A stretch of DNA of 64,000 bases, from contig CM059431.1 of the NCBI GenBank assembly GCA_030390025.1, positions 144,524,001 through 144,588,000 of the forward strand, read 5' to 3'. Position numbers and translations under genes: made by a program. Below are positions 11,201 through 60,483 of the stretch, one piece after another; positions within the stretch are counted from its first letter, which is position 1, and every line of letters starts with the position of its first letter. Below the pieces are notes generated by a model. That model searched no databases. It had not been told where the DNA came from and saw only the letters and a list, made by a program, of their open reading frames with translations. The DNA is from Squalus acanthias (taxonomy: Eukaryota).

Positions 11201-11244
11201 GTTTAACTGAGTAGATCTTAATCAAACTGCTGATCTCACATAGT

Positions 11245-17439: not shown

Positions 17440-18232
17440 TTTGACTTAATTGTTTTCTTTAAACCAGCCTGAGGAATATCAGCAAAGTCTTCAGCTCTTC
17501 TCTGTATTTGGTCAGAGTGTATCCAGAAATGCAGGTGTTCGTCCAGGAACACAAATACATGAACATGAACCTGGTTCGAGTCGGTATATATATTGGGTTA
17601 GTGAAATCGCATTGATAATGAGCGCTGACGGTCATTCTGACAACTAAAGCTCACAGCAGCTTTCAACCACCAGAAGGTAAAATTGCCCGATAGAGTGGAG
17701 AGCGAATTGATCGATCTGTTTCGGTTCTCCCTATCTGGATCACACTCATTCTCGCCGTATTGACCCGGAGTGCCCTGCGGACTCGATTGGACGGCCAGAT
17801 ACTTAAACATTGAAATCAAAGCAGATGGCATCAAGGGAAAAATATAGATTTCACCAGGAATGTGCTGCCCAGGAATGTAATAAAAGGAATTCCACACTTG
17901 TGCTTCAATCCCGCTGCACATTGTCAATTATTTCTTCCTGTTCAAAGCATCAGAGGCTGTAACTGAACCAGAACAGGTCGGTGATCCCTGTTAGACCGCG
18001 GCTGCAGTCCTCTCCGTGCAATATGACGTTGTAAGTTTCGAGCAGCATATCGCTGCAATGCGTTCAATGGTGAAGGAGACGGTGAACCGCACAGACCTTT
18101 CCAGGGTGGCGACATTCAAGCAGAGAATGAAGCTGCAAACTGGAGTTTGGAACAGGAAGCGTAGTGGAAAGACATAACCGAAATTCCGATGAGGTTGAAG
18201 ATCATGACCAGTAGAAACGCCACCGCCTTATT
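17440..18232 (-). pseudogene. Decayed GPR139-like GPCR exon 2
   Basis: DNA blocks shared with 59080-59999 (GTGAAGGAGACGGTGAACC, TTGAAGATCATGACCAGTAGA); ENECDPDRENRNRSI..TLSGNF; frameshifted, exon 1 not found. Confidence 0.85.
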
Positions 18233-18244
18233 GTCACAGCCTCT

Positions 18245-19045
18245 TGGGCCTGTTACATAGGAACAGGAGAAAGGCATGCAGGCCCGCCCCGCCTCCCTCA
18301 GCCTGACGTGTAGGAACAGAATTGACCATTCATCCCCAAAAACCTGTGGCATAGGAATATAAAGAGGCCATTCCGCCCCTCGAGTCCGTTACATAGGAAA
18401 GGAGGAGGCCATTTAGCCCTCTAGTCCGTAACATAGGAATAGCTGTAGGTTTTCCAGACCCTCGATCCAGCTACAGAAATACAGGAGTAGGCCATTCAGC
18501 CCCTCGCTTCTGTTAGAACGGAACTGGAAAAGACCATTCAGCCCCTCGAGCCTGTTATATAGAAATGCGAATAAATCATTAATCCTCTAGATCGTGCTGC
18601 ATAGGAACAAGAGTCGGCCATCCATACCTCGAGCCTGTTCCAATATAACAGAGTAGGCAATTCAACTCATCAGCCAGTTTCATACTTACAGGGGCAGAGC
18701 GAGCGGCCCGTAGAATCTGTTACATAGGAATGGGAGAAGGCCATTCAGCCCCTCGAGCCAGCTACATAGGAACAGGGGTTGGCTATTTTGCACCGTTTGG
18801 TCGCTCACATTTGAAAAGTAGGCCAGTTAGCCCCTTGAGCCTGTTGCACAGGAACCTGAGTACACCATTCAACCCCTCGAGCCTGTTACATATTTACCGG
18901 GGTAGAACTGGCGGCTCATCGAGCCTGTTACATAGGAATGGGAGGAGATTATTCAGCCCCCAGAGCCAACTAAATAGCAACATGAGTAGAACATTCAGAC
19001 CGCGGCACTGAGCACAGGAACAAGGAGAGGCCATTCACACCTTCA
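18245..19045. repeat. ~41-bp minisatellite derived from a CR1 3' end
   Basis: Unit CATAGGAACAGGAGTAGGCCATTCAGCCCCTCGAGCCTGTTA resembles the LINE termini at 29730-29780 and 61020-61065. Confidence 0.8.
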
Positions 19046-19239
19046 CGTTACTTCATCAGATAACACAATTAAATTAATCGAACAGGATTTGCCTTTAACA
19101 AATCCGTTTTGGCTGTCTTATCTGCCCCTTTACTGCCCTGTATCCTTTATGCTGCTCAAGACAAACATTGTTAACCCCGCCCCTTCCTTAACCACGCCCC
19201 TTACTACTTTACATAAACCTGCAGGATCGGCACTCCGAG

Positions 19240-19770
19240 AAGCGACCTGATAAAGGCTTATCAAATAAAGCACTTGCTGGATTGCGCGCCTATTGACAGA
19301 TGATTTCAGTTTGACAGGTTAGAGAGGAGCGGGAGACATGCAGATGAGCTCGGTAGGTGGTTCTTCTTTTCACCGAGAGTAACGAGCCTCTGGAATGTGT
19401 TGCAAGCTTGGGCGACACGTGCTGCCTCTCTGCATCTCTTCAAGAGAGAGCTAGACCGCTTCTTGCCTCGGGCAGATATCGCAGCATATTCAAGGTAAGT
19501 GGATTAACAATTAACGTGCGCAAATCAATGTCAACTTCTGAAGTGGTTTTGATTGCCTGAGGGTGTCGCAGAGGAATTCTCCACAGTTTTTTTGCGCCTT
19601 ATTGACCCTGGGTATTTTCTGCTACATTGCATCTCCCCGAAGATCACAGGCTGCAGGGAGATATGAAGTGTTTACTCAACGTGCTGCGAGCATCATGAGT
19701 GTGGGGCAGGCTTGATGGACCTGCCGGTCTTTTGTTGCCCGTCATTTCTGTCTTTTCGTCTGTTCTTGCG
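19240..19770 (+). mobile_element. Old CR1-like 3' fragment
   Basis: TTCTTTTCACCGAGAGT..CTCTGGAAT, TTCAAGAGAGAGCTAGAC, terminal GCTTGATGGACC hairpin-like region and short-repeat tail. Confidence 0.5.
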
Positions 19771-20199
19771 GCGCCTCTGAAGGTTGAATAATGTGACTTT
19801 CCCTGCACGTTCTTTGTAGCCGAGTCCGCTGACCGTGGACCTCGGCCTCGTGGCCCCTTTCTACCGTCTCATCGGGATGGATGCTAACCATGTACCAGGG
19901 TTACCAGAAGTAAGGTCATTTCCCAGTGTGAAACCTGACTAGAGCACCTCAGAGCTGCAGCTGAAACCTGGCGCTGATTGGGCCATGTAGCTCAGACGTC
20001 TGTTTGGTTGCTACTTCACAGCGCTCACTGTACCCTCTCTCCTCATTCACATTGCCTTTCATTAATTACTCACTGTTTAGTCTGTGCTGCACATTACTGT
20101 AGCAGTTCTGTATTCTATGCTTATCAAAGAAAGACTTCCATTTGTATAGAGTCTTATACATCCCCAGGACGCCCCAAACGACTTTACTGTCAATGAACT

Positions 20200-20550
20200 A
20201 CTATTTTTTAAAGTAGCCGGTGTTGTAAAGTAGCAATAATGGCAGCAAATTTCTGCACAGCAAGATCCCCCACACAGCAATATGATAGTTAACAGATAAT
20301 TTGTTTTAATACATTTGTTTGAGAGATAAATGTCAGCGAGGATGCTGGGGAAGAATCCACTGCTCATCTTCAAAATAGTGCCATGGGATCTTTTAACTCC
20401 TCCTGAGTGGATCAACGGACAATCGGATTAATATCACATCTGCAAGGCGGCACCTCCACCAGCCTAGATGTTTTTCTCAAGTCCCTGGAGTGGGGCTGGA
20501 ACACAACAATTCTGACTTCGAGACTGCTACCACCGAGCCACGTCTGACAC
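20200..20550 (-). mobile_element. tRNA-headed Deu-domain SINE (SacSINE1-like)
   Basis: Minus strand has head GTGTCAGACGTGGCTCGGTGGTAGC and Deu core TAAAAGATCCCATGGCACTATTTTGAAG; homologous to 31733-32080. Confidence 0.75.
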
Positions 20551-21722
20551 AGTACCTACACCTCGCATCACTGTGTAACGGTAAATATACAGAAATGACC
20601 ATTCTCACCGAGCCCCGGTTGACACTGTACCTACACCTCGCATCACTGTGTAACGGTAAATATTGAGAAATGACCATTCCCACCGAGCCCCGGCTGACAC
20701 TGTACCTACATCTCGCATCACTGTGTAACGGTAAATATAGAGAAATGAACATTCTCACCGAGCCCCGGCTGACACTATACCTACACCGAGCATCACTGTG
20801 TAACGGTAAATATAGTGAAATGACCATTCCCACCAAGCCCCGGCTGACACTGTACCGACACCGAGCATCATTGTGTAACGGTAAATGTACAGAAATGTCC
20901 ATTCTCACCGAGCCCCGGCTGACACTATACCTACACCAAGCATCACTGTGTAACGGTAAATATAGCGAAATGACCATTCACACCGAGCCCCGGCTGACAC
21001 TGTACCAATACCGGGCATCACTGTGTAACGGTAAATATACAGAAATGACCATTCCCACCGAGCCCCGGTTGACACTGTACCTACACCTCGCATCACTGTG
21101 TAACGGTAAATATAGTGAAATGAACATTCCCACCAAGCCCCGGCTGACACTGTACCTACACCTCGCATCACTGTGTAACGGTAAATATAGTGAAATGACC
21201 ATTCCCACCGAGCCCCGGCTGACACTGTACCTACACCGAGCTTCACTGTGTAACGGTAAATATAGACAAATGACCATTCCCACCGAGCCCCGGCTGACAC
21301 TGTACCTACACCTCGCATCACTGTGTAACGGTAAATATAGTGAAATGACCATTCCCACCGAGCCCCGGCTGACACTGTACCTACACCGAGCTTCACTGTG
21401 TAACGGTAAATATAGACAAATGACCATTCCCACCGAGCCCCGGCTGACACTGTACCTACACCGAGCATCACTGTGTAACGGTAAATATAGAGAAATGACA
21501 ATTCCCACCGAGCCCCGGCTGACACTGTACCTGCACCGAGCATCACTGTGTAACGGTAAATATACAGAAATGACCATTCCCACCGAGCCCCGCTGCCACT
21601 GTACCTACACCGAGCATCATTGTGTATCGGTAGATATAGAGTAATGACCATTCCCACCGAGCCAAGGCTGACACTATACCTACACCAAGCATCACTGTGT
21701 GACAATAAATATAGAGAAATTA
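20531..21722. repeat. 60-bp tandem repeat, ~20 copies
   Basis: CACCGAGCCCCGGCTGACACTGTACCTACACCTCGCATCACTGTGTAACGGTAAATATAGAGAAATGACCATTCC recurring with period 60. Confidence 0.95.
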
Positions 21723-21899
21723 CCAATTCCATCGACACGCAGCCTCCACAAGAGGACCTTAAAGTCGGCCTTCCTGGCCATCCAGATATATTTATATTTG
21801 GCCAACGTATATTTGGATAGAGAGAGTGATGGATACTAAAATAGAAGGGACAGTAAATCATTCTGAGAACCAAAGGGCGCTGTAAAGGGATATTGATAA

Positions 21900-22240: not shown

Positions 22241-22243
22241 GAT

Positions 22244-24990
22244 TGTAGGGGTAATACTGGGACGGGAGGGACACGGTCACATCTATTGTAAGTGTAGGGG
22301 TAACACTTGGACAGGAGGGCCACGGTCACATCTAGTGTCAGTGCAGGGGTAGCACTGGGACATGATTGACACGGTCACATCTAGTGTCAGTGTAGGGGTA
22401 ACATTGGGACAGGATGGACACGGTCACAACTAGTGTCAGTGTAAGTGTAACACAGGGAAAGGAGGGGCACGGCCACATCTAGTGTCAGTGTAGGGGTATC
22501 TCTGGGACAGGAGGGACACGGTCACATCTAGTGTCAGTGTAGGGGTAGCACTGAGACAGGAGGGGCACGGTCACATCTAGTGTCAGTGTAGGGGTAGCAC
22601 TGGGACAGTAGTGGCACGGTCAATTCTAGTGTAAATGTAGGGGTAGCACTGGTGCAGCAGTGGCACGGTCACTTCTAGTGTAAGTGTAGGGGTAACTCTG
22701 GTACAGGAGGGACACGGTCACATCTAGTGTCATTGTAGGGATATCTCTGGGACGGGAGGGACATTGTCACATCTAGTGTCAGTGTAGGGGTAGCACTGGG
22801 TCAGTAGTGGCATGGTCACTTCTAGTGTAAATGTAGGGGTAGCACTGGTACAGTAGTGTCACGGTCACTTCTAGTGTAAGTGTAGGGGTAACTCTGGGAT
22901 AGGAGGGACACGGTCACATCTTGTGTCAGTGTAGGGGTAGCACTGGGACAGGATGGACAAGGTCACATCCAGTGTCAGTTTCGGGGTAACACTGGGACAG
23001 TTTGGGCACGTTCACATCTAGTGCCAGTGTAGGGTTAACATTGGGACAGGAGGGACACGGTCAGATCTTGTGTAAGTGTAGGGGTAACATTGGGACAGGA
23101 GGGGCACGATAACATCTAGTGTCAGTGTAGGGGTAATACTGGGTCAGGATGGACACGGTCACATCTAGTTCCAGTGAAGGGGTAACATTGGGTCAGGATG
23201 GACACGGTCACATCTAGTGTCAGTGAAGGGGTAACATTTGGTCAGGATGGACACGGTCACATCTAGTGTCAGTGCAGGGGTGACACTGGGACAGGAGGGA
23301 CACGCTAACAACTAGTCTAATTGTCGCGTTAACACTGGGACAGGATGGACACAGTCACATTTAATGTTAGTGTAGGGGTAACACTGGGACGGGAGGGACA
23401 CGGTCACATCTAGTGTCAGTGTAGGGGTAACAATGGGACAGGAGGGGCACGGTCACATCTAGTGTCAGTGCAGGGATAGCACTGGGACAGGATTGAAACG
23501 GTCACATCTAGTGTCAGTGTAGGGGTAACATTCGGACAGGATGGACACGGTCACATCTAGTGTCAGTGTAGGTGTAACACTGGGACAGGAGGGACACGGT
23601 CACATCTAGTGTCAGTGTAGGGTTAACATTGATACAGTAGTGTCACGGTCACATCTAGTGACAGTGTACGTGTAACATCGGAACAGGAGTGGCACGGTCA
23701 CATCTAGTGACAGTGTAGGGGCAACACTGGGACAGGAGGGACACGGTCAGATCTTGTGTAAGTGTAGGGGTAACATTGGGACAGGAGGGGCACGATAACA
23801 TCTAGTGTCAGTGTAGGGGTAATACTGGGTCAGGATGGACACGGTCACATCTAGTTCCAGTGAAGGGGTAACATTGGGTCAGGATGGACACGGTCACATC
23901 TAGTGTCAGTGAAGGGGTAACATTTGGTCAGGATGGACACGGTCACGTCTAGTGTCAGTGCAGGGGTGACACTGGGACAGGAGGGACACGCTAACAACTA
24001 GTCTAATTGTCGCGTTAACACTGGGACAGGATGGACACAGTCACATTTAATGTTAGTGTAGGGGTAACACTGGGACGGGAGGGACACGGTCACATCTAGT
24101 GTCAGTGTAGGGGTAACAATGGGACAGGAGGGGCACGGTCACATCTAGTGTCAGTGCAGGGATAGCACTGGGACAGGATTGAAACGGTCACATCTAGTGT
24201 CAGTGTAGGGGTAACATTGGGACAGGATGGACACGGTCACATCTAGTGTCAGTGTAGGTGTAACACTGGGACAGGAGGGACACGGTCACATCTAGTGTCA
24301 GTGTAGGGTTAACATTGATACAGTAGTGTCACGGTCACATCTAGTGACAGTGTACGTGTAACATCGGAACAGGAGTGGCACGGTCACATCTAGTGACAGT
24401 GTAGGGGCAACACTGGGACAGGAGGGGCACGGTCACATCTAGTGTCAGTGTCGTTGTAACACTGGAACAGGAGGGGCACGGTCACATCTAGTGTAACTGT
24501 AGGGGTAACACTAGGGGAGGAGGGACACGGTCACACCAAGTGTCAGTCTAGGGGTAACACTGGGACAGGAGGGGCACGGTCACATCTAGTGTAAGTGTAG
24601 GGCTAACACTGGGACAGGAGTGGCACGGTCACATCTAGTGTCAGTGTAAGTGTAACACTGGGACAGGAGGGGCACGGCCACCTCTAGTGTCAGTGTAGGG
24701 GTAACTCTGGGACAGGAGGGACACGGTCACATCTAGTGTCAGTGTAGGGGTAGCACTGGGACAGGAGGGGCACGCACGCAACTAGTTTAAATATTGGGCT
24801 AACACTGGGACAGGAGGGGCACGGTCACTTCTCGTGTAAGTGTAGGGGTAGCACTGGGACAGTAGTGGCACGGTCACTTCTAGTGTAAGTGTAGGTGTAG
24901 CACTGGGACTGTAGTGGCACGGTCAGTTCTAGTGTAAGTCTAGGGGTAACACTGGGACAGGAGGAGAATACGCTGATCTAGTGTATGAGG
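22244..24990. repeat. 49-bp minisatellite, ~56 copies, with an internal 686-bp duplication
   Basis: Unit GTCACATCTAGTGTCAGTGTAGGGGTAACACTGGGACAGGAGGGACACG; variant TCAGATCTTG at 23061 and 23747. Confidence 0.95.
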
Positions 24991-25574
24991 GGGTACTCCC
25001 CTCGTACCGGAGGAGCGCTGTCAATAGCTGTGTTAGTGTAGTGCTACCACTATTACCATAGCAGCACATTCAACTCCAGTGTAGTCATGGCACTAGTGCC
25101 TGAGGAGTTCGGACACATTTAGCGTAACTGTATTGTGCCAGTAGCCCAGGAGGAAAACTGTCACTCTAAGATAAAGGTAGGGTACCACTAGTACAGGAGG
25201 ATCACTGTCACCTCATATACTGCCAGACTGGGTTCATCACCAGTATTGCAGGATGTGATTCACTGCCTGTTCTGGAGGAGTTGTTGCAATAGGAATGAAT
25301 CAAGGGCAGGGTCATGACAATTATTGCCTGGGGAGCTGCCTTCACCAGGCCTGTAGGAACAGCGTCAGCACGAATACTGGGAGATTGCACATCATACACG
25401 TAGACACTGTTTTAAATCTGCACTTTTTTGAAACTCTCCAATAACAATTTCACAGTATTTCTCTTAATCTGACGTATCAGTTAAAAAAACAACTTACCTA
25501 AGTCTATTTGTTCAATGACTATAACAAATGCTAATTATGATTTAACCTGATTGACTCGCTGGAGGATTGATGTG

Positions 25575-25590
25575 TGGATAAATATAGGTT
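25575..25590 (+). promoter_or_regulatory. TATA-like element of GPCR copy 1
   Basis: GGATAAATATAG ~85 bp upstream of the ATG; conserved upstream of copy 2 (~60560-60571). Confidence 0.5.
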
Positions 25591-25663
25591 CCCTTCCATT
25601 GCCTCAGCCGTGCGCCAGTCGGAGTCCTTTAGCTTCGACAGAATTCATTCATTTTCACTGAAA

Positions 25664-27038
25664 ATGGGGCGAACAACTATTCTGCTGATCAAAGAGATTT
25701 ACTACCCGATTCTCGCGGCCGTCGGTGTCCCTGGTGAGCCATTGTAACCTGTTTTTTGGTTAATCGGGGTTAATTGTATTCATGTACATACAGCCTGTTT
25801 TAATAAGGTATTGAGTTTTCTAGAGGTCAACATTACACTTAATCGGTTAGCCTTACTGATGTTACCAAGTTCTTTGAATCTCCAACACAAGGATTTTAGC
25901 GGATTTCTGGACCGTCTTGTTCCCCCCGTGCAGAGTGAGCGCTGCAAAAGCTCATTAAAATATGTGGATGGGTTTCCCAGGTAATGGCTTTAATACGAAT
26001 CCTGTTCTCACACTGCTCCGTGTTGATAATCACACTGAATGGAATGAAATGATCTTAACAGGTATCTACTTATATATTTCAATCAGACACTGGGACGTTA
26101 TTTCTCTCCTCTCTCTCTTTCTTACAGCGAACTTGGTCACAATTGTGATTCTCTCCCGAGGAAACTGCGGCCTTTCGAAGTGTATCACTATCTACATGGT
26201 GGCCATGGCAACAGCAGATCTGCTTGTCTTGATCTTCAATGTAATAGGATATCATATTTTCAATTATCACTTTCCACTTTCATTCCTGTACCACACTCCC
26301 GTGTGTAAGTTCATTCTCTATATGACTGCTGTCAATCTCGATTTTTCTGTTTGGTTCACCGTCTCCTTCACATTTGACCGATGTGTTGTTATCTGCTGCC
26401 AGAAGTTTAAAGCAAAGTATTGCACCGAGAGAACTGCGGCCGCGGTCATAACAGCTTTCACGGTCGTAATCTTTTTAAGGGGCATCCCCATTTTGTTTGC
26501 ATTTGAAGCTGAACAAATCGTTAACAAGGTGCAGTGGGGCTGCCGGAACAGTGTGACTTTTGTTACCTCAGCTCCAGGTGTTGCCTACATCTGGTTTCAC
26601 AGCGCCTGGGGCGTTTGGCTTCCTTTTACTTTAATTGCATTTTTAAATTATTTGACAGTCAGACGTATTTTAGTGGCCAGCAGAGCCCGCAGGGGACTCC
26701 GGGGTCAAAGGAGTGAGAATCAGAGAGATACAGAGACAGAGAACCGAAGGAAATCCATCATTTTACTGTTCACTATATCGGGCAGTTTTATATTGTTGTG
26801 GATGACAGCTGCCGTGAGTTTTGTAACTACCAGACTGACAAACACCACCTATTATCGAGGTGACCGCACAGACACTGGTTATATCGCCATTGAAACTGGA
26901 ACAATGTTGAAGTTTTTCAGTTGCTTTCAAAACTCGTGCATTTATGTAGCGACCCAGAGGAAATACAGAGAAGAGCTGAAGAATGTGGTTAAATCCCCCT
27001 GGAGACTGATTCTGAGATTAGTTAGAAAATCAGAATAG
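25664..27038 (+). CDS. Class A GPCR, GPR139/GPR142-like, 326 aa; exons 25664-25733 and 26128-27038
   Basis: Exon 1 MGRTTILLIKEIYYPILAAVGVP with phase-1 G|GTGAG donor; polypyrimidine TTACAG acceptor; in-frame join PANLVT; ADLL, FDRC, seven hydrophobic segments. Confidence 0.92.
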
Positions 27039-29721: not shown

Positions 29722-31518
29722 GAACAATAGAACATAAGAAATCGGAGCGGGAGTAGGCCATTTAGCACTTCAAGCCTGCTTCGCCATTCAATAAGATCAT
29801 GGCTGATCTTTAACCTCATCTCCACTTTCCTGAACTATCTCCATCTCCCTTGATTCCCTTAATATTCAAAAATGTATCGATCTCTGTCTTGAATATACTC
29901 AACGACTGAGTCTCCACAGTCATCTGGGTAGAGAATTCCAAAGATTCACCACCCTCTGAGTGAAGAAATTTCTCCTCATCTCAGTCCTAAATGGCCGACC
30001 CTTTATTCTGAGACTGTGACCAATGGTTCTATAATCCCCAGCCAGGGGAAACATCCTCCCTGCATCTAACCTGTCAAGCCCTGAAATTTTGTATATTTCA
30101 ATGAGATCACCTCTCATTCTTCTAAACTCTAGAAAATATAGGCCTACTCAATCTGTCCTCATAGAATAATCCCCCCATCCCAGGAACCAGTCTGGTGAAC
30201 CTTCGTTGCTCTCCCTCTATGGCAAATTTATCCTTCCTTAGGTAAGGAGACCAAAACTGTACACAATACTTCAGGTGTGGTCTCACCAGGGCCCTATATA
30301 ATTGCAGGTTTACATCTTGATTCTTAAATGTCTTAGTCCTCTTTTGCTGAATTCTAAAATCCTCCCTATCCTCAGGCTTACCACTCTTCTTGGCAGCATT
30401 AAAAGCCTCTTCCTTTGATCTAATACTATCTTTAACTTCTCTTGTTAACCACGGTTGGACCACTTTTCATGTGGAGTTTTTGTGCCTTAATGGAATGTAT
30501 ATTTGTTGTAAATTATGAATTAATTCTTTAAATGCCAGCCATTGCTCGTCCACTGTCATACATTTTAATGTATTTTCCCAATCTACATTAGCCAACACGC
30601 CCCTCATACCTCAGTAGTTTGCTTTGTTTAGATTTAAGACCCTAGTTTCGGATTTAAATAAGTCATTTTCAAACTCAATATAAAATTCTATAATTATATG
30701 GTTACTCTTTCCTAAGTGCCCCTTTACTACGGGTTTATCATTTAACCCTTTCTCGTTGTACAATACTAGATCTAAGTTCCTGTTCCCAGGTTGGTTCCTT
30801 AACATACTGATCTAGAAAACTATCTTACATACATTCCATGATTTCGTCCTCCACGCTATGACTGCAAATTTGATTTGCGCAGTACATATGTAAATTAAAG
30901 TCCCCCATCATTACTGTATTACCCTTGCTAGATTCGCCTCTAATTTCCTGATTTATAATCTGCCCTACATTACAACTAATGTTTGGGGACCTATAAACAA
31001 CTCCCTTCAATGTTTTCTGCGCCTTTCTGTTCTAAGCTCCACCCAAACTAATTCTGGTTCTTGATTTTCAGAGCTAAGATCCTTTCTCTCTAATGTCTGC
31101 ATCCCATCCTTTATTATCAGGGCTACCCTCCTCCTTTTTCATTTTGTCTCTCCCTTCCAAATTTATGTATCCTGGAATATTTATGTCCCAACCTTGGCCA
31201 CTGTGCAACCACGTCTCCGTTATGGCTATTAGATTAAACCTTTTAACTTCTATCTGCGCTATTAATTGATCTATTTTGTTGCGAATGCTTCACGCATTTA
31301 GAGATAATGCCTTTATCTTGGACTTATTTCCCTTTTTCCCTGCAGTCACCTTAGCCTTATTACCTTTGTTACTCTCTCTGTCCCTTCCTGACCCACTCTG
31401 TTTATTTTTACACAAAACTGTACTCTGTTCTAGTTCCTTGACATTTCACTGCTTTTAAACGTACTCTTTCCTGAACTCTCCCGCCACCCACCCCTCCCTG
31501 CTCCTTCATTAGTTTAAT
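29722..31518 (-). mobile_element. Internally deleted CR1 LINE
   Basis: Endonuclease (GVVYRSP, MGDFN, LDLVL) joined at ~30315 directly to the ORF2 C-terminus; RT core absent. Confidence 0.9.
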
Positions 31519-46600: not shown

Positions 46601-49600
46601 TACCACGGGTTTCCGCACTCTTCCAGATTCCATCGCACGGGTTGCCGCAATCTGCCAGTTCCCAGTTTCATGGATTCCCGCGCTCTGCCAGATCCCAGTC
46701 CCAAGGTTTTCCTGTACTCTGCCAGATCCCAGTCCCACGGGTTCCAACAATCTGCCAGATCCCAGTCGAAGGTTTTCCCACACTCTGCCAGATCCCAGTC
46801 CCACGGGTATCCGAACTCTGCCAGATCCCAGTCCCAAGGTTTTCCCGCACTCTGCCAGATCCCAGTCCCACGGGTTTCCGCACTCTGCCAGTTTCCAGTC
46901 CCACGTATTCCCACACTCTGTCGGCTTCCAGTCACACTAGTTCACACACTCTGCCAGTTTCCAGTCCCACCGGTTCCCACAATCTGCCAGATCCCAGTCC
47001 CACGGGTTCCCACACTCTGTCAGATCCCAGTCCCACGTATTCCCACAATCTGCCAGATCCCAGTCCCACGGGATCCCGCACTCTACCAGATCCCAGTCCC
47101 ACGGGTTTCCGAACTCTGTCAGATCCCAGTCCCACGGGATCCCGCACTCTGCCAGATCCCAGTCCCACCGGTTCCCACAATCTGCCAGTTCCCAGTCCCA
47201 CGGGTACCCGCACTCTGCCAGATCCCAGTTCCACGGGTTCCCGCATTCTGCCAGATCCCAGTCCCACGGGTTCCCGCATTTTGCCAGATCCCAGTCCCAC
47301 TGGTTCCCACACTCTGCCAGATCCCATTCCATCGGGTTCCCGTACTCTGCCAGATCCCAGTCCCACGGGTTCCCACACTCTGCCAGATCCCAGTCCCACG
47401 GGTTCCCACACTCTGCCAGATCCCATTCCATCGGGTTCCCACACTTTGGCAGATCCCAGTCTCACGGGTTCCCGCACTCTGCCAGATCCCAGTCCCACGG
47501 GTTCCCACACTCTGCCAGATCCCAGTCCCACGGTTTCCCAGACTCTGCCAGATCCCAGTCTCACGGGTTCCCACACTCTGCCAGATCCCAGTCCCACGGG
47601 TTCCCGCACTCTGCCAAATCCCAGTCCCACGGGTTCCCGCACTCTGCCAGATTCCAGTAACACGGGTTCCCACACTCTGCCATTTTCCAGTCTCACGGGT
47701 TCCCACACTCTGCCAGATTCCAGTAACACGGGTTCCCGCACTCTGCCAGATCCCAGTCCCACGGGTTCCCACACTCTGCCAGATCCCAGTCTCACTTGTT
47801 CCCACACTTTGTCAGATCCCAGTCCCACAGGTTCCCGCACTCTTCCAGGTTCCATACCACGGGTTCCCACACTCTGACAGATCCCAGTCACACGGGTTCC
47901 CGCACTCTGCCAGATCCCATTCTCACGTGTTCCCACAATCTGCCAGATCCCATTCTCACGTGTTCCCACAATCTGCCAGATCCCAGTCCCACGGGTTCCC
48001 GCACTCTGCCAGAACCCATTCCATCGGGTTCCCACACTCTGGCAGATCCCAGTCCCACGGGTTCCCGCATTCTGCCAGATCCCAGTCCCAAGTGTTCCCG
48101 CATTTTGCCAGATCCCATTCCCACTGGTTCCCGCACTCTGCCAGATCCCATTCCATCGGGTTCCCACACTCTGCCAGATCCCAGTCCCACGGGTTCCCAC
48201 AATCTGCCAGATCCCAGTCCCACGGGTTCCCACACTCTGCCAGATCCCAGTCCCAAGGTTTCCCGCACTCTGCCAGGTCCTAGTCCCACGGGTTTCCGCA
48301 CTCTTCCAGGTTCCATCCCACGGGTTGCCGCAATCTGCCAGATCCCAGTCCCACGGTTTCCCGCAATCTGCCAGATCCCAGTCCCACGGGTTCCCGCACT
48401 CTGCCAGATCCCAGTCCCACGGGTTCCCACACGCTGCCAGTTCCCAGTCTCACGGGTTCCCGCACTCTTCCAGGTTCCATCTCACGGGTTCGCACACTCT
48501 GCCAGATCCCAGTCCCACGGGTTCCCACACGCTGCCAGATCCCAGTCCCAAGGTTTTCCCGCACTCTGCCAGATTCCAGTCCCACGGGTACCCGCATTTT
48601 GCCAGATCCCAGTTCTACGGGTTCCCGCATTTTGCCAGTTCACAGTCCCACGGGTTCCCGCACTCTGCCAAATCCCAGTCCCACGGGTTCCCACACTCTG
48701 CCAGATTCCGGTCCCACGTATTCCCACACTCTGCCAGATCCCAGTCCCACGGGTACCCGCATTTTGCCAGTTCCCAGTCCCACGGGTTCCCGCAATCTGA
48801 CAGATCCCAGTCTCACGGGTTCCCACACGCTGCCAGTCCCCAGTCTCACGGGTTCCCACACTCTGACAGATCTCATTCCCACGGGTTCCCGCACTCTGCC
48901 AGTTTCCAATCCTACGGGTTCCCACACTCTGCCAGATCCCAGTCTCACTTGTTCCCACACTTTGTCCGATCCCAGTCCCACGGGTTCCCGCACTCTTCCA
49001 GGTCCAATACCACGGGTTTCCGCACTCTTCCAGATTCCATCGCACGGGTTGCCGCAATCTGCCAGTTCCCAGTTTCATGGATTCCCGCGCTCTGCCAGAT
49101 CCCAGTCCCAAGGTTTTCCTGTACTCTGCCAGATCCCAGTCCCACGGGTTCCAACAATCTGCCAGATCCCAGTCGAAGGTTTTCCCACACTCTGCCAGAT
49201 CCCAGTCCCACGGGTTTCCGAACTCTGCCAGATCCCAGTCCCAAGGTTTTCCCGCACTCTGCCAGATCCCAGTCCCACGGGTTTCCGCACTCTGCCAGTT
49301 TCCAGTCCCACGTATTCCCACACTCTGTCGGCTTCCAGTCACACTAGTTCACACACTCTGCCAGTTTCCAGTCCCACCGGTTCCCACAATCTGCCAGATC
49401 CCAGTCCCACGGGTTCCCACACTCTGTCAGATCCCAGTCCCACGTATTCCCACAATCTGCCAGATCCCAGTCCCACGGGATCCCGCACTCTACCAGATCC
49501 CAGTCCCACGGGTTTCCGAACTCTGTCAGATCCCAGTCCCACGGGATCCCGCACTCTGCCAGATCCCAGTCCCACCGGTTCCCACAATCTGCCAGTTCCC

Positions 49601-52600
49601 AGTCCCACGGGTACCCGCACTCTGCCAGATCCCAGTTCCACGGGTTCCCGCATTCTGCCAGATCCCAGTCCCACGGGTTCCCGCATTTTGCCAGATCCCA
49701 GTCCCACTGGTTCCCACACTCTGCCAGATCCCATTCCATCGGGTTCCCGTACTCTGCCAGATCCCAGTCCCACGGGTTCCCACACTCTGCCAGATCCCAG
49801 TCCCACGGGTTCCCACACTCTGCCAGATCCCATTCCATCGGGTTCCCACACTTTGGCAGATCCCAGTCTCACGGGTTCCCGCACTCTGCCAGATCCCAGT
49901 CCCACGGGTTCCCACACTCTGCCAGATCCCAGTCCCACGGTTTCCCAGACTCTGCCAGATCCCAGTCTCACGGGTTCCCACACTCTGCCAGATCCCAGTC
50001 CCACGGGTTCCCGCACTCTGCCAAATCCCAGTCCCACGGGTTCCCGCACTCTGCCAGATTCCAGTAACACGGGTTCCCACACTCTGCCATTTTCCAGTCT
50101 CACGGGTTCCCACACTCTGCCAGATTCCAGTAACACGGGTTCCCGCACTCTGCCAGATCCCAGTCCCACGGGTTCCCACACTCTGCCAGATCCCAGTCTC
50201 ACTTGTTCCCACACTTTGTCAGATCCCAGTCCCACAGGTTCCCGCACTCTTCCAGGTTCCATACCACGGGTTTCCGCACTCTTCCAGATTCCATCCCACA
50301 GGTTGCCGCAATCTGCCAGTTCCCAGTTTCATGGATTCCCGCGCTCTGCCAGATCCCAGTCCCAAGGTTTTCCTGTACTCTGCCAGATCCCAGTCCCACG
50401 GGTTCCCACACTCTGCCAGATCCCAGTCCCACGGGTTCCCACACTCTGCCAGATCCCATTCCATCGGGTTCCCACACTTTGGCAGATCCCAGTCTCACGG
50501 GTTCCCGCACTCTGCCAGATCCCAGTCCCACGGGTTCCCACACTCTGCCAGATCCCAGTCCAACGGTTTCCCAGACTCTGCCAGATCCCAGTCTCACGGG
50601 TTCCCACACTCTGCCAGATCCCAGTCCCACGGGTTCCCGCACTCTGCCAAATCCCAGTCCCACGGGTTCCCGCACTCTGCCAGATTCCAGTAACACGGGT
50701 TCCCACACTCTGCCATTTTCCAGTCTCACGGGTTCCCACACTCTGCCAGATTCCAGTAACACGGGTTCCCGCACTCTGCCAGATCCCAGTCCCACGGGTA
50801 CCCACACTCTGCCAGATCCCAGTCCCACGGGTTCCCACACTCTGCCAGATCCCAGTCCCAAGGTTTCCCGCACTCTGCCAGGTCCTAGTCCCACGGGTTT
50901 CCGCACTCTTCCAGGTTCCATCCCACGGGTTGCCGCAATCTGCCAGATCCCAGTCCCACGGTTTCCCGCAATCTGCCAGATCCCAGTCCCACGGGTTCCC
51001 GCACTCTGCCAGATCCCAGTCCCACGGGTTCCCACACGCTGCCAGTTCCCAGTCTCACGGGTTCCCGCACTCTTCCAGGTTCCATCTCACGGGTTCGCAC
51101 ACTCTGCCAGATACCAGTCCCACGGGTTCCCACACGCTGCCAGATCCCAGTCCCAAGGTTTTCCCGCACTCTGCCAGATTCCAGTCCCACGGGTACCCGC
51201 ATTTTGCCAGATCCCAGTTCTACGGGTTCCCGCATTTTGCCAGTTCACAGTCCCACGTGTTCCCGCACTCTGCCAGATCCCAGTCCCACGGGTTCCCACA
51301 CTCTGCCAGATTCCGGTCCCACGTATTCCCACACTCTGCCAGATCCCAGTCCCACGGGTACCCGCATTTTGCCAGTTCCCAGTCCCACGGGTTCCCGCAA
51401 TCTGACAGTCCCCAGTCTCACGGGTTCCCGCACTCTGCCAGATTACAGTCCCACGGGTTCCCACACTCTGACAGATCTCATTCCCACGGGTTCCCGCACT
51501 CTGCCAGTTTCCAATCCTACGGGTTCCCACACTCTGCCAGATCCCAGTCTCACTTGTTCCCACACTTTGTCCGATCCCAGTCCCACGGGTTCCCGCACTC
51601 TTCCAGGTTCCATACCACGGGTTTCCGCACTCTTCCAGATTCCATCGCACGGGTTGCCGCAATCTGCCAGTTCCCAGTTTCATGGATTCCCGCGCTCTGC
51701 CAGATCCCAGTCCCAAGGTTTTCCTGTACTCTGCCAGATCCCAGTCCCACGGGTTCCAACAATCTGCCAGATCCCAGTCGAAGGTTTTCCCACACTCTGC
51801 CAGATCCCAGTCCCACGGGTTCCCGAACTCTGCCAGATCCCAGTCCCAAGGTTTTCCCGCACTCTGCCAGATCCCAGTCCCACGGGTTTCCGCACTCTGC
51901 CAGTTTCCAGTCCCACGTATTCCCACACTCTGTCGGCTTCCAGTCACACTAGTTCACACACTCTGCCAGTTTCCAGTCCCACCGGTTCCCACATTCTGCC
52001 AGATCCCAGTCCCACGGGTTCCCACACTCTGTCAGATCCCAGTCCCACGTATTCCCACAATCTGCCAGATCCCAGTCCCACGGGATCCCGCACTCTACCA
52101 GATCCCAGTCCCACGGGTTTCCGAACTCTGTCAGATCCCAGTCCCACGGGATCCCGCACTCTGCCAGATCCCAGTCCCACCGGTTCCCACAATCTGCCAG
52201 TTCCCAGTCCCACGGGTACCCGCACTCTGCCAGATCCCAGTCCCACGGGTTCCCGCATTCTGCCAGATCCCAGTCCCACGGGTTCCCGCATTTTGCCAGA
52301 TCCCAGTCCCACTGGTTCCCACATTCTGCCAGATCCCATTCCATCGGGTTCCCGTACTCTGCCAGATCCCAGTCCCACGGGTTCCCACACTCTGCCAGAT
52401 CCCAGTCCCACGGGTTCCCACACTCTGCCAGATCCCATTCCATCGGGTTCCCACACTTTGGCAGATCCCAGTCTCACGGGTTCCGCGCTCTGCCAGATCC
52501 CAGTCCCACGGGTTCCCACACTCTGCCAGATCCCAGTCCCACGGTTTCCCAGACTCTGCCCGATCCCAGTCTCACGGGTTCCCACACTCTGCCAGATCCC

Positions 52601-53745
52601 AGTCCCACGGGTTCCCGCACTCTGCTAAATCCCAGTCCCACGGGTTCCCGCACTCTGCCAGATTCCAGTAACACGGGTTCCCACACTCTGCCATTTTCCA
52701 GTCTCACGGGTTCCCACACTCTGCCAGATTCCAGTAACACGGGTTCCCGCACTCTGCCAGATCCCAGTCCCACGGGTTCCCACACTCTGCCAGATCCCAG
52801 TCTCACTTGTTCCCACACTTTGTCAGATCCCAGTCCCACGGGTTCCCGCACTCTTCCAGGTTCCATACCACGGGTTTCCGCACTCTTCCAGATTCCATCC
52901 CACAGGTTGCCGCAATCTGCCAGTTCCCAGTTTCATGGATTCCCGCGCTCTGCCAGATCCCAGTCCCAAGGTTTTCCTGTACTCTGCCAGATCCCAGTCC
53001 CACGGGTTCCCACACTCTGCCAGATCCCAGTCCCACGGGTTCCCACACTCTGCCAGATCCCATTCCATCGGGTTCCCACACTTTGGCAGATCCCAGTCTC
53101 ACGGGTTCCCGCACTCTGCCAGATCCCAGTCCCACGGGTTCCCACACTCTGCCAGATCCCAGTCCAACGGTTTCCCAGACTCTGCCAGATCCCAGTCTCA
53201 CGGGTTCCCACACTCTGCCAGATCCCAGTCCCACGGGTTCCCGCACTCTGCCAAATCCCAGTCCCACGGGTTCCCGCACTCTGCCAGATTCCAGTAACAC
53301 GGGTTCCCACAGTCTGCCATTTACCAGTCTCACGGGTTCCCACACTCTGCCAGATTCCAGTAACACGGGTTCCCGCACTCTGCCAGATCCCAGTCCCACG
53401 GGTACCCACACTCTGCCAGATCCCAGTCCCACGGGTACCCACACTCTGCCAGTTCCCAGTCCCACGGGTTCCCACACTCTGCCAGATCCCAGTCCCACGG
53501 GTTCCCACACTCTGCCAGTTCCCAGTCCCACGGGTTCCCACACTCTGCCAGATTCCAGTCCCACAGGTTCCCACACTCTCCCAGTTTCCAGTCTTACGGG
53601 TCCCCGCACTCTGCCAGATCCCAGTCCCACGGGTTCACGCACTCTGCCAGATCCCAGTCCCACGGGTTCCCACTCTCTGCCACACCCCAGGCCCTAGGGT
53701 TCCGGCACTCTACCAGTTTCCAGTCCTAAGGGCTCCCACACTATG
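34660..53745. repeat. 33-bp satellite (~580 monomers) with ~2.4-2.6 kb higher-order repeat
   Basis: Monomer CCCAGTCCCACGGGTTCCCACACTCTGCCAGAT; marker GTCGGCTTCCAGTCACACTAG recurs at spacings 2441, 2507, 2573, 2407, 2605. Confidence 0.98.
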
Positions 53746-54884: not shown

Positions 54885-54947
54885 GGATTCTGGGAGTTGT
54901 AGTCCACCCTTGACAGAGACTCAAACAGAACTGGTGCATTATGGGAG
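54885..54947 (-). promoter_or_regulatory. Paired ZNF143 (SBS)/THAP11-type motifs
   Basis: GGACTACAACTCCCAGAATCC and CTCCCATAATGCA on the minus strand. Confidence 0.6.
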
Positions 54948-55473: not shown

Positions 55474-56730
55474 ATCATAGAATTATTGAATCCTAGAGTT
55501 ATACAGTACAGAGGGAGGCCATTAGGCCCATTGTGCCTGTGCCAGCTCTTGGAAAGAGAGAAACAATTAGTCCCGCTCCTCTGCTACTTATTTTATTTTC
55601 ATTTATTTTACTTCATCTCCCCGCTGGTTTTTGTGCCAATGACCTTAAATCTGTGTCCTCTGGTTACTGAGCAGTCTGCCCCTGGAATAAATTTCGTAGA
55701 ATTTCCTTTATCAAAACCATTCCTAATTTGTATTCAGTTTGGTGCTCCCTTGAATTATTTACACAACATTTATCTTAAGCTTCCTTTTTTCTGTTATCAA
55801 TTTTGAATTCAGTTTTGGCTTGAATTTTGCTAACAGGTCGAGCATGTAGTACTTTGTCAAACGTCTTTTTAAAGTCCATAAACATAACATCAACTGCAAT
55901 ATCATCATCAACCCTCTCAGTTACTTCATGAAAGAACTCGATCAAGTTAGTAAAACATGATTCCCCACTAAAAAATCCGTCGTGGCTTTCATTGATTAAC
56001 CCACATTTTCTAAGTGCTAATTAAGTTTCTGTCGGATTATTGTCTCTAAATGTTTCTGCACCAATTTAGGTTGAGTGGCCTGACGTTTTTTGAATGGGGT
56101 GTAATGTTTGCAATCCACCACTACTCTGGCAGCTCTCCCATATCTAAGGAGGATTGGAAGATTTTTTGACCCCAGAGCCTCTGCAATTTCAACCCTTACT
56201 TCCCTCAGCTACCTAGGATACAGCCCATTTGGACCGGGTGACATTTCTACTTTGAGTGCTTCAAATGTTTTAAGTACCTCCTCTTTATTTATATTTTTCC
56301 TATCCAATTTCTCTACTATCGCCTCCTTTACTGTGACATTGAAAGCATTCATTTCTTTAGTGAAGACAAATGCAAAATATTCATTTAATACCTAAGCCAT
56401 GCTCCCTGCCTGCTCAAGAAGATTTCCTTTCTGGCCTGTAATCGGCCCCATCCTTGAGAGTGCCACGCTCCCGGAGGATCCCAGCACCACCTGCCTCTTC
56501 GCGCCCTGCCGATGGCCACCAACTTACTATCCTCCTGAACTCATTGTGGCTGCGGGGTGACCACCTCCTGGAACATGTGATCGAGCTAATTCTCAGCCCT
56601 GCAGTGAGTCCAGCCGCTACTGAAGCTCAGAAACTCTGAGTTTAAGTTCGAGCAGATGGAGGCACTTCATGGACACGTGATTATCATGGGCATGTGAAGC
56701 GTCCTAGAGTTCCAACATGTCTCAGGAATA
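55474..56730 (-). mobile_element. Fragmented CR1 LINE (3' tail, RT, ORF1 zinc-finger pieces)
   Basis: CATAGAAT tail, DFKKTFDKV-like segment, LNEYFAFVF, similarity to 4630-4810. Confidence 0.7.
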
Positions 56731-57473
56731 TCCATTTTTGTTATCAATGTAAGTTGCAGCTTCTAATTCAACAGTGACAGAAATCACGATGGAAGCTTAA
56801 TGAGATTCCGATGTTACGGACCGCCGTCAGACTTGGGATGGAGCTGTGTAACCCTTCACTAACACTCTACAACCACAGAACTCTCTGCACTGTGATACAA
56901 ACACATACAATGCGATTATCGGATTCTGACATGTAGATACACGATGGAGAAATTCGCGTGAGTTACACCCCAATTTTTAAGTCTTTCTTTCGACCAAATT
57001 ATGCAATACATTTTAACTAAACATTTAAATCTGTTACTGAGTCTAAGAATTTATGAGAGACTAGGTTTCATCTAAAAGAACTATAAACAGACCCACAATC
57101 CAAATACTGGCACTGCCCAACTGACTCTGACAGTAAAGAGCCTTGAAACAATTGGAGGCTGCTTCAAAAGTCTCTGTACTTTATCAGATACTATTCGGAA
57201 AATAGGAAACACATCAATAATTCCGTGATTTGACTGAACTTTCCTCCGCTTTAGTGAATTCTGCCGATTGGCAGCAGCGTATTTTACACCCGCCCAATTT
57301 AATTTTTCATTATAGTAATTGAAAAGGGAAGTTCGGTGGGGTGTATGACTGGCGCACAGTCCGCTACAGCCAGATTTCCACCCAGGCCGTAACTTAAAAT
57401 GCCCTTAGTTTCAGAATATTCAGATTCCACGAATCCCTAATGGACTGATAACTACAGGCATGCAGAAGATGGA

Positions 57474-57749
57474 AGATGTGGAGATGCCGGTGTTGGACTG
57501 GGGTGGACAAATGTGAGAAGTCGCACAACACCAGGTTATAGTCCAACAGCTTTATTTGAAATCCCAAGCTTTCGGAGCGCTGCTCCTTGGTCAGGTGAAG
57601 TGAAGAGATGCATATAGTCACAGCAGTTGGAAAGATTAACTGTAATCATCTGGCAGTGTTCTCTGACTATATATGCTGTGACTATATGCATCTCTTCACT
57701 TCACCTGACGAAGGAGCAGTGCTCCGAAAGCTTGTGATTTCAAATAAAG
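57474..57749 (-). mobile_element. Short Penelope 3'-end insertion with inverted duplication
   Basis: 57549-57626 inverted against 57674-57749; TSD AAGATGGA (57466-57473, 57747-57754); the minus-strand hammerhead at 57562-57598 is core-mutated (CTGACCA). Confidence 0.85.
57701..57737 (+). ncRNA. Minimal hammerhead ribozyme motif
   Basis: TCAC-CTGACGA-A-GGAGC-agt-GCTCC-GAAA-GC-TT-GTGA. Confidence 0.8.
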
Positions 57750-58393
57750 ATGGACGACACCGCGATAAAAATACAATCCGACTGGGCAAAAAAAAATGCA
57801 TGCAAGCCAATCAGTTTAAAATTAATATAAACCAACAGAACAATTAATATCAGCGGCGCCCATTAATTTCAGAAGATGTGTAAAGATCGAGCTGTCACAG
57901 CGTTGCCTGTTTATATGTGTATCCGGTAAACTTAATAGAACACAGAAACCAGTCAGAGACAGTCCTCTGACTTTCTTACACATCCTGCAGTGTGAACAGT
58001 GGATTTATCCAGTTCGAGGGGCAGCTTCGCTTCGACATCTTTCAACCTGCAACACATGTACTGCAGAATAAATTGCAAAACAGTTTCAACCGTGGCACTG
58101 ATATTAGCGGGCGGATAAAATGCTAGTTAATTGGCTCGAATCCTCATCTGAAGCCGTTGTGCCGAGCTAGGCTCTCCAAACCAGGTCCCCAGTGGTGCTG
58201 GACGGAGCTCCGAATACACCGCCTTGCACTGGGAGTACCCGTTCAATGCCAGTTGGTAAAATGGACGGGGTATTACATGGCACTGTCTGTGCACCAACAC
58301 ACACCGCGGATTATTCCATAGAAATATCTGAGAGTCCTGATTACTGATCCTTGCCTGAAAAGCCCCGATTATAAATTCTTATTTCATACACTG

Positions 58394-58824
58394 TGTTACC
58401 AGGTTACAGGGTCCCTGATTGACAATAAAAGCAGTCAGATTCACAATGATACATTTAGTAACAGCAAGTAACAACTTTATTTAATGTTGCTGGACAGACT
58501 TCAACTATTTCTCTTTAATAAAGACGTCAGAAGAAAAGGTAAAACGAGGCAACTCCAGTTAACACTCAAAAAATGGTGAAACACTGAGAAGGGGACAGCA
58601 AAACTGCTCCTTCTTCCCAGGAGAAGGGGTGAAGCGGCCTTTGCAGCTACAATCAGTCCAAGCAACATTTTCACAAAAACCTGCCAGAAAAAGTAAGGGA
58701 CAGGAAATTGTAAACGACTAAATCTTTCCCTAAAACTGGTGACTGATCCGGTCAATATATGGTAGAATTGATTACATGTCCCCGCAGGATCAGATATTAA
58801 ACCCGTTAATCAACTATTGTAACA
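58394..58824. mobile_element. Probable solo LTR
   Basis: TGTTAC...GTAACA termini; flanks CACTG/CACTC (4 of 5 match); internal AATAAA signals. Confidence 0.5.
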
Positions 58825-59079
58825 CACTCTTAAATTTCACTTAATCACTGATATTTTTCTTACTTAAGGGGGAATGACCTTGTTAGGGAGGAGTCACTCG
58901 GCCAAAGAACTGCGGCAACCAACAGTCCTTGTTGGCGTTAAATGCTACAAAGTGCCCCAATTATAGTCGTGTGCCTGTGAGTTTTTACAAGAACAATCCT
59001 ATGTTGCGGTTAGCAGAGAGAACTCCAGTCCAAGCTGGAACACGAGCTAGAACGGAATTCTAATGTCCCAACCGAAGCT

Positions 59080-60483
59080 CTAGTTCGGCTTTCTTTCATG
59101 TTTAACCAATCTTAGAATCAGTGTCCAGGGAGGTTTCACCACCTTCTTCAGCTCTTCTCTGAACTTCCTCTGGGTCGCTGCATAAATACACGTGTTCGGA
59201 CATGAGCTCAGATGCTTCAGCAGATCTCCGGTTTCAGTGACGATATAGGCTGCGTTTGTGCGGTCGCCTCGGTAATAATTGACATTTGTCATTCTGGTAA
59301 TTAAAAAATTCACGGCAGTTGTCAGCCAAAGCAGTAGAAAACTGCCCGATATAGTGAAGAGCAAAATGATGGATTTCCTTCGGTTCTCCATCTCTGGATC
59401 GCTCTGATTCTCACAGCTCTGACCCCGGAGTCCCCTGCGGGCTCTGCTGGCCACTAAAATACGTCTGACGGTCAAACAATTAAACAAGGCCATTAACGTA
59501 AAGGGAAGCCAAACGCGCCATATGGTGTGAAACCAGAGATACGCTACACCTGGAGGGGAGGAAAATAAAGCTACATTGTTCCGGCAGCCCCACTGCACCT
59601 TGTTAATTATTTGCTGCGGTTCAAATGCAAACAATACGGGGATGCCCTTTAAAAAGACCAGGAACGTGAACGCTGTTATAACCGCGGCCGCAGTTCTCGC
59701 GGTGCAATACTTCACTTTAAACTTCTGGCAGCAGATAACTATAAAACGGTCAAATGTGAAGGAGACGGTGAACCAAACAGACAAATCGAAGGTGACAGCT
59801 TTCATGTATAGATTGAACATACACACGGGAGTGTGGGACAGGAATGAAACTGGAAAGTGATAACTGAAAATATAATACACCATTACATTGAAGATCATGA
59901 CCAGTAGATCTGCTGTTGCCATGGCCACCATGTAGACAGAGATACACTTGGAAAAGCCGCAGTTTCCTCGGGAGAGAATCACAATTGTCACCAAGTTCGC
60001 TGTAAGAAAGAGAGAGGAGAGAATTAATATTCTGATTGAAATATATATGGAGATCCCTGTCGAGAGCATTTAACTCCATTCAGTGTGATTATCCACACGG
60101 AGCAGTGTGAGAACAGGATTAGTTTTGGAGCCATTACCTGGGAAACCCACCCACACATTTTAATGAGCTGCTGCAGCGCACACTCTGCACGGGGGGACAA
60201 GACGGACGGATTTCCGCTAAAATCCTTGTTTTGGAACTTCTAATAGCAAAGTAACATCACTCAGGTTATGGTATTAAGGGAAACGTGGAAAGTGCGGACA
60301 CGCGGTTCACTGTTTCATGCTGACATCTGTAAAACTGTTACCCTATCCAACATGCGATATGAACAGAGAGGCAGTAAACCCCGATTAACAACAAGCAGGT
60401 TACAATGGCTCACCGGGGACACCGAAAGCTGCGAGAATCGGGTAGTAAATCTCTTTTATCAGCAGTATAGCTGATCGCCCCAT
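59080..60483 (-). CDS. Class A GPCR, GPR139/GPR142-like, 329 aa; exons 60483-60414 and 59999-59080
   Basis: Exon 1 MGRSAILLIKEIYYPILAAFGVP, same phase-1 GT-AG intron as copy 1, FDRF, intact frame. Confidence 0.92.

Follow-up and report, generated by a model that had tools for sequence, protein, structure and literature searches.

The locus described here raises the question of what a group of GPR139-like G-protein-coupled receptor (GPCR) genes, one of them decayed, stands for in a shark genome. The group lies in a stretch of 64,000 nucleotides (nt) of Squalus acanthias (assembly GCA_030390025.1, contig CM059431.1, positions 144,524,001 to 144,588,000), called the window below and numbered from its first letter. 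A preliminary description had claimed two intact and one pseudogenised paralogue within 43 kb, and the gene models bear this out. We have hardly any doubt that these genes belong to a GPR139-like receptor family of cartilaginous fishes, and this family is a birth-and-death receptor repertoire of independent origin, whose size exceeds what the window alone would lead one to expect. The two intact genes, B and C, would be working class A GPCRs of this repertoire, which bloomed in cartilaginous fishes, and we give a probability of about 0.4 to the reading in which it serves external chemical sensing.

Genes B and C and pseudogene A

Both intact genes encode class A GPCRs in two exons, B a protein of 326 amino acids (aa) and C one of 329, and their layout is identical: a 70-nt exon 1, a phase-1 GT..AG intron inside transmembrane helix 1 (TM1) and a long exon 2. 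Pseudogene A is the decayed exon 2 of a further family member. The three lie in the orientations -,+,- and the interval 17440-60483 spans 43 kb. The features are as follows.

25664-25733, plus strand: gene B exon 1 (70 nt; ATG at 25664), N-terminus and first part of TM1
25734-26127, plus strand: gene B intron (phase 1, GT..AG, 394 nt), skipped by a paralogue contig
26128-27038, plus strand: gene B exon 2, from the remaining TM1 to the stop codon (326-aa protein)
25189-25663, plus strand: upstream region of B, conserved with that of C (83% identity, 460 columns)
60483-60414, minus strand: gene C exon 1 (70 nt; ATG at 60483)
60413-60000, minus strand: gene C intron (phase 1, GT..AG, 414 nt)
59999-59080, minus strand: gene C exon 2 (329-aa protein)
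60484-60951, minus strand: upstream region of C, conserved with that of B
17433-18281, minus strand: pseudogene A, decayed exon 2 with the 5' part gone (tblastn E 1e-35)

Both proteins exceed the Pfam cut-off for 7tm_1 (70.7 bits for B, 58.2 bits for C), and no Pfam model other than PF00001, olfactory or TAAR-type models included, was found for either at E<=0.1. The hallmarks of class A are present, namely seven helices, N1.50, D2.50, D/E-R3.50, P5.50, W6.48, N7.49/Y7.53 and helix 8. The predicted structure of C has seven helices with a predicted local distance difference test score (pLDDT) of 80.3, and a Foldseek search with this model returned class A folds and generic peptide receptors, with GPR139 only at rank 29. 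As had been described, the N-terminus is very short, N1.50 being residue 25 (mostly residue 26-28 in the single-copy relatives treated below). Since these relatives have a short N-terminus too, it is ancestral and not a chemoreceptor hallmark. The intron of human GPR139 may lie at the same TM1 position, as the residues at the junction align with the family profile.

The B and C proteins differ at 81 of 326 aligned residues. With a synonymous divergence (dS) of 0.29 and a ratio of nonsynonymous to synonymous divergence (dN/dS) of 0.46 (bootstrap 0.33-0.64), the two are old paralogues under purifying selection overall. They are not mutual nearest rows in the 209-row tree described below, and a recent tandem pair was rejected by the dS and by these tree positions. 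The tandem expansion amid satellites that had been proposed thus stands for the copies, the pseudogene and the arrays, but not for a recent head-to-tail pair, given the orientations and the dS.

The DNA match between B and C begins in the upstream region and extends over 1870 columns. Their intron had been called identical, which holds for its position but not for its sequence, which is 85% identical over 379 aligned columns, with a central block of about 150 nt at >90%. It differs at 57 of 379 columns versus about 58 of 239 synonymous sites (p 0.006) and is therefore more conserved than the latter. The conserved upstream DNA is probably promoter and 5' untranslated region, and, together with the intron, it is a candidate shared regulatory element; the noncoding similarity could stem from regulatory constraint, from gene conversion or from alignment bias. 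A gene-conversion tract in the coding region of B and C was tested for and was not supported (p 0.09).

Pseudogene A retains 69% DNA identity to B and C (811-826 columns) and has accumulated many frameshifting indels and, by alignment, 3-4 in-frame stops. Exon 1 or intron remnants were looked for near it and none were found; a 42-bp array occupies the expected place of its 5' end.

The receptor family and its ligand pocket

The search with gene B exon 2 as query gave 3042 candidates, 1598 of them at E<=1e-10, and the best 120 of these 1598 all come from elasmobranchs: Pristiophorus (33 rows), Heterodontus (28), Heptranchias (25), S. canicula (11), Rhincodon (8), S. torazame (7), Stegostoma (4), and Mustelus, Chiloscyllium, Cetorhinus and Pristis (1 each). 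These counts are lower bounds, because the rows are 90% clusters of one subfamily. The top identity to gene B exon 2 was 79%, in a sawshark protein. At E<=1e-30 a scan of 1.84 billion representatives gave 101 clusters at the 50% identity level, a number that rose to 163 at E<=1e-10, and we infer that the family may total near 1,400 proteins.

After a coverage filter, which 291 of 392 proteins passed, a FastTree of 209 rows placed B, C and 170 others in one clade (support 86), with species-specific blooms in Heterodontus (17 rows, support 100) and Pristiophorus (10 rows, support 99). Among the 53 clade rows that carry no species label, 18 deep representatives were checked and all 18 are chondrichthyan, one of them a chimaera; two fused gene models outside the tree are also chondrichthyan. 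Members of the family were found in 18 named species, including skates, a stingray, an electric ray, a devil ray and Callorhinchus. The genes are clustered, with all 11 S. canicula rows on one 226-Mb contig, all 7 S. torazame rows on one chromosome-length contig and 17 of the 28 Heterodontus rows on one 75-Mb contig. The elasmobranch origin of the 120 best relatives, the blooms and the diversified pockets described below uphold the earlier proposal of a large, lineage-restricted and poorly characterised birth-and-death family, and no description of its expansion was found in the literature searched, most subscription journals lying outside the reach of that search.

In RefSeq, family genes bear an automatic label, 'probable G-protein coupled receptor 139'. 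Public models (P0186, P0220, P0131) are fused to a sodium channel, an integrin alpha-X-like gene or a RING protein, or are misnamed; among the misleading names on family members are allatostatin, vasopressin, FMRFamide or ghrelin receptor-like. Such fused and misnamed models hide the family from name-based counts.

The best match among solved structures is human GPR139, with 29 bits for gene C and 80.6 bits for the family profile (next receptor 66.3); it was the top match for a second profile too. Closer to C are proteins of a salamander, at 139 bits, of the coelacanth, at 120, of a teleost, at 109, and of amphioxus, at 80, the GPR139 scores and these coming from different libraries and being compared by bits, not E-values. 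In a second tree of 50 rows, built with a mixture model, with a bootstrap not fully settled and without true GPR139 or GPR142, the shark family is one clade (94/88) with the chimaera nested inside and with subfamilies common to sharks, rays and chimaera. Its sister is an amphibian/sturgeon gene, the P0212 clade (99/99); a single-copy vertebrate clade, P0224, lies outside (100/97) and amphioxus beyond.

The P0212 clade, to which the salamander protein belongs, holds one row per species, 20 of them amphibian (frogs, salamanders, caecilian) and 1 sturgeon. By its placement, this gene is the orthologue of the whole shark family, and it is the expansion alone that is confined to chondrichthyans. 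It shares with the family a short N-terminus and a basic RR motif before TM6, and differs in being single copy with a nearly invariant pocket, which is aromatic and basic. No published function for it was found in the literature searched.

The P0224 clade, to which the coelacanth protein belongs, reaches from sharks to squamates and turtles with at most 2 rows for any named species, and no bird or mammal was seen among the best 120 of 145 rows (about a third without a species label). Sharks retain their own copy of this gene (P0275, P0278, P0282). The family profile matches the clade with probability 100, E 4e-56 and 29% identity. The two share the short N-terminus and the cysteine pair, but the P0224 receptor, besides its low copy number, has kept R6.51, E2.61, D3.29 and Y3.33. 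It is an apparently unnamed single-copy receptor that retains the amino-acid anchor residues of GPR139. Its annotation as a TMEM183A isoform in both a shark and a frog suggests conserved linkage. A table in PMC5207463 lists non-mammalian 'NMOGPR' and 'Orphan 139-like' receptors, in its accessible part without sequences, and our guess is that the P0224 and P0212 clades may be these 'Orphan 139-like'/'NMOGPR' entries. Among protostomes, the receptors for MIP/sex-peptide, FMRFamide, proctolin and myosuppressin are kin of the wider lineage (PMC8514136, accessible part).

The family resembles GPR139 and GPR142, class A receptors activated by L-Trp and L-Phe, in several respects. Theirs is a two-exon gene (PMC7318219, accessible part); B and C have in common with them H at 5.42, W6.48 and an acidic 7.36, and P7.50 is missing from the NxxxY motif in both. 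The shark family differs in standing on a separate branch, in its many copies per genome (at least 33, 28 and 25 clusters among the best 120 rows) and in a cysteine pair joining TM3 to extracellular loop 2 (ECL2), the aligned GPR139 having no cysteine at 3.25.

The pocket residues separate them further. In GPR139, according to the accessible text of PMC8807744, R244(6x51) is essential and is docked against the carboxyl of Trp/Phe, and D84(2x61), E105(3x29) and E108(3x32) face the ligand amine; the site is lined by F109, H187, W241 and N271 (PMC7318219, accessible part). In the single-copy vertebrate clade R6.51 is present in 106 of 107 sequences and E2.61 and D/E3.29 in 107 of 107 each; Y3.33 is kept, as is R6.51 in amphioxus. 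The P0212 clade has K6.51 in 23 of 23. In the shark family, just 5 of 170 members have R or K at 6.51 (A in B, T in C), D2.61, E3.29, E3.32 and F3.33 are missing and P6.50 is mostly T, with H5x43 and W6.48 kept. The family thus lacks the acidic 2.61/3.29 residues but has the TM3-ECL2 cysteine pair. The switch residues are almost invariant among the 170 members (D2.50 in 165, R3.50 in 168, W6.48 in 166, N7.49 in 167, Y7.53 in 167 and C3.25 in 165).

An expanded GPR139/GPR142, or an amino-acid pocket shared with these receptors, as first supposed, is not supported, given the separate branch, the loss of R6.51 and of the acidic 2.61/3.29 residues, and the retained cysteines. B and C as GPR139/GPR142 orthologues were rejected by the scores of the other clades, the pocket residues and the copy number; the exclusion rests on scores and residues, because true GPR139 and GPR142 are absent from the trees.

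Site rates at 34 pocket positions, fixed beforehand, were compared with those at 144 other helix sites. In the shark family the median rate was 1.41 in the pocket versus 0.67 elsewhere (p 1.7e-7), about twofold. The pocket was the slower part both in the single-copy vertebrate clade (0.29 versus 0.61, p 0.013) and in the amphibian/sturgeon gene (0.17 versus 0.48, p 1e-5). In the shark family the pocket has certainly escaped the constraint that its sister clades show, and positive selection on it is suggested.

Satellites, transposons and other sequence in the window

Satellite arrays with units of 26, 75, 49, 33 and 42 bp cover about 26 of the 64 kb, about 40%, and much of the non-satellite remainder consists of remains of long interspersed elements (LINE) and Penelope elements. 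Four of the arrays, to which no strand is assigned, lie within the receptor cluster.

18295-19042: 42-bp degenerate tandem array, 18 copies (TRF)
20530-21730: 75-bp satellite, 16 copies
22244-24964: 49-bp satellite, 55 copies, directly upstream of gene B
34668-53742: 33-bp satellite, 578 copies, in higher-order repeats of about 2.4-2.5 kb

The higher-order repeats of the 33-bp satellite recur at offsets of 2441, 2507, 4948, 5080 and 7521 with identities of 98.7-99.6%, which argues that the array was recently amplified. It has a strong strand skew and open frames of up to about 1000 codons; these were rejected as genes, as a period of 33 keeps frames open. The 26-bp satellite is present twice (3-703 and 6251-8718), and the stretches 241-703 and 6251-6710, one beside each array, are inverted copies of each other (463 nt, 90% identity).

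The segment 32080-33829 is what we take to be a Penelope-like remnant, with a reverse-transcriptase end and a GIY-YIG-type nuclease, and it has no Pfam match; its 423-nt inverted terminal repeat is 98.8% identical, which points to a young insertion. A second Penelope-like remnant lies at about 5600-6270. Endonuclease and reverse-transcriptase pieces at 846-4846, 29727-31337 and 61012-63768, all on the minus strand, are presumably remnants of CR1-type LINEs, the last two being 72-78% identical. On the minus strand at 10273-12121 there are broken open pieces that resemble a class III viral fusion glycoprotein; two of their ends, at 11248-11523 and 10273-10911, are membrane-anchored and alike. 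Their Atlas lead is a Monjiviricetes-type fusion protein (score 0.94, but weak recognition), with no Pfam match, and they are possibly an endogenous viral element or a retroelement envelope.

Possible roles of the repertoire

The repertoires of olfactory receptors (OR), TAAR, vomeronasal FPR and MRGPR consist of clustered genes that undergo birth and death, with pseudogenes and with a variable pocket above a conserved inner face, and those of TAAR and FPR arose from a non-sensory receptor. The shark family resembles them in how the repertoire works, having clusters, blooms, a pseudogene, a variable pocket with a conserved inner face and, in our reading, a non-sensory receptor as its source. 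It differs from OR, TAAR, V1R, V2R and T2R in that it is not a member of any of them by sequence, its nearest relatives being GPR139-like, and in that its genes carry the TM1 intron.

In the mechanism that we propose, one GPR139-like ancestral receptor would have lost its fixed 6.51 anchor early in cartilaginous fishes and then multiplied. The copies would retain the activation switch and the G-protein face, and the ligand pocket would vary from copy to copy, so that different copies would detect different ligands and jointly cover many. Judging from the ancestry of the family, these may be small water-soluble molecules such as amino-acid derivatives, amines and short peptides. Coupling would be through Gq or Gi/o, by analogy with GPR139, which was solved with Gi and mini-Gs/q (PMC8807744, accessible part). 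The likeliest users would be external chemosensory cells, namely olfactory microvillous neurons, taste or solitary chemosensory cells and cells of the gut lining. A ligand-diversified repertoire, in whatever tissue, appears likely from the comparisons above.

In three read sets with the same species label, 20, 17 and 11 contigs respectively match the B locus at 80-95% identity, and none above 95%. A contig of set X1 (depth 3.4) covers 25640-25728 and joins exon 2, removing the exact predicted intron with the frame kept. It supports the gene model of B and the transcription of a close paralogue, as a single contig for which a DNA retrocopy is possible; other contigs from these presumed-RNA sets match the intron. 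In all 3 sets, loose contig ends match the motif of a distant subfamily, one catshark member of which (P0220) is annotated as fused to an integrin alpha-X-like gene, which would make that gene and the receptor gene neighbours. The family had no match in the supplements of PMC11589584, PMC10529500, PMC13188829, PMC11806052 and PMC8455134 (12 of the 24 files of the last), and a Greenland shark preprint contained no GPCR passage. Few copies, a lack of expression or placement in a known family, which the preliminary description had named as contrary outcomes, were not what we found within the material examined.

Several points weigh against external chemosensory use. The read sets are presumed to be RNA and carry no tissue record, and the presence of many paralogues in such small sets fits non-olfactory cells at least as well. 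The top 50 specific genes of a catshark brain-plus-olfactory library include no GPCR in the accessible part of PMC11979771, which is weak evidence either way. The pocket numbering was set from motifs and not from a solved structure, although it is supported by the invariance of the polar residues at these positions in both sister clades. Under a stricter control, the non-pocket outer halves of the helices, the excess of the family pocket was modest (1.35 versus 1.11, p 0.007), and among the 117 closest relatives it was 1.22 versus 1.03 (p 0.14); such an excess fits lost constraint as well as diversifying selection. Between B and C, 13 of 34 pocket residues differ versus 68 of 292 elsewhere, which is not significant (p 0.06), and the pocket dN/dS of 1.3 comes from the 34 codons of this single pair (p 0.06).

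The same features could belong to a sentinel repertoire, in which leukocytes, mast-like cells or somatosensory neurons would detect microbial or damage peptides and metabolites, as FPRs and MRGPRs do in mammals. The blooms, the pocket rates and the residue data fit this equally, contigs of several paralogues occur in all 3 sets lacking a tissue record, and P0220 adjoins an integrin alpha-X-like gene, with the motif of its subfamily again in all 3 sets. MAS1 and its relatives are reported to be absent from cartilaginous fishes (PMC8455134, accessible part), which leaves a MAS1-type role open. However, gene neighbourhood is not equal to expression, the family is unnamed in the immune literature searched, and a supplement of 4,750 characters from work on nurse shark spleen yielded no match to it; we regard this role as plausible but doubtful. 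We hold it to be distinctly unlikely that the bloom is largely neutral, without real repertoire function, with copies that had multiplied in satellite- and transposon-rich DNA becoming redundant, their pockets freed from constraint and their decay slow in slow-evolving genomes. The composition of the window, about 40% satellite and much of the remainder LINE and Penelope, agrees with it, as do a dN/dS of 0.46, which is high for a receptor, and a pocket that in the nearest subfamily is not significantly faster than adjacent outer-helix sites. Yet this dN/dS is clearly below 1 at a dS of 0.29, the switch residues are 96-99% kept across a tree length of 44 changes per site, subfamilies are common to sharks, rays and chimaera, the noncoding DNA of B and C, intron and upstream region alike, has changed less than their synonymous sites, and a paralogue is spliced.

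A further alternative, very unlikely in our judgement, is that the receptors respond to peptides or metabolites which the animal itself makes and whose set has expanded, whether endocrine, gut-nutrient, osmoregulatory or reproductive, sperm and pheromone cues included. The kinship of the lineage to protostome peptide receptors (PMC8514136, accessible part), the activity of GPR142 in gut and pancreas (PMC7318219, accessible part) and the peptide receptors among the fold matches speak for it, but endogenous ligands usually hold a pocket constant, as is seen in both single-copy sister clades.

A narrower form of the external chemosensory reading can be formulated for the nose. Cartilaginous fishes have about 10-50 known olfactory receptors, and catshark olfactory neurons are nearly all Go/TRPC2, with the V2R co-receptor label at 'moderate frequency' (PMC10116579, accessible part); some of these neurons may then have no known receptor. 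The same figures count in favour of the wider external chemosensory reading. The family could be a fifth olfactory receptor family that only cartilaginous fishes possess and that outnumbers their V2Rs, derived from a GPR139-like amino-acid receptor minus R6.51 and expressed as one gene per cell in Go/TRPC2 neurons unlabelled by the V2R co-receptor. We consider this form rather unlikely.

Cartilaginous fishes have been described as having a paucity of GPCRs (PMC8455134, accessible part). The presence of at least 25-33 members of one subfamily per species challenges this GPCR-poor, 10-50-receptor view. If the family is sensory, it would be another independent origin of a vertebrate chemoreceptor family; if it is immune, it would be a shark counterpart of FPR/MRGPR surveillance. 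If it were a fifth olfactory family, the large nose of sharks would no longer be at odds with a count of 10-50 known receptors. The passage from a fixed to a variable pocket could be followed along the natural series that both single-copy sister clades provide, one of which has the GPR139 anchor.

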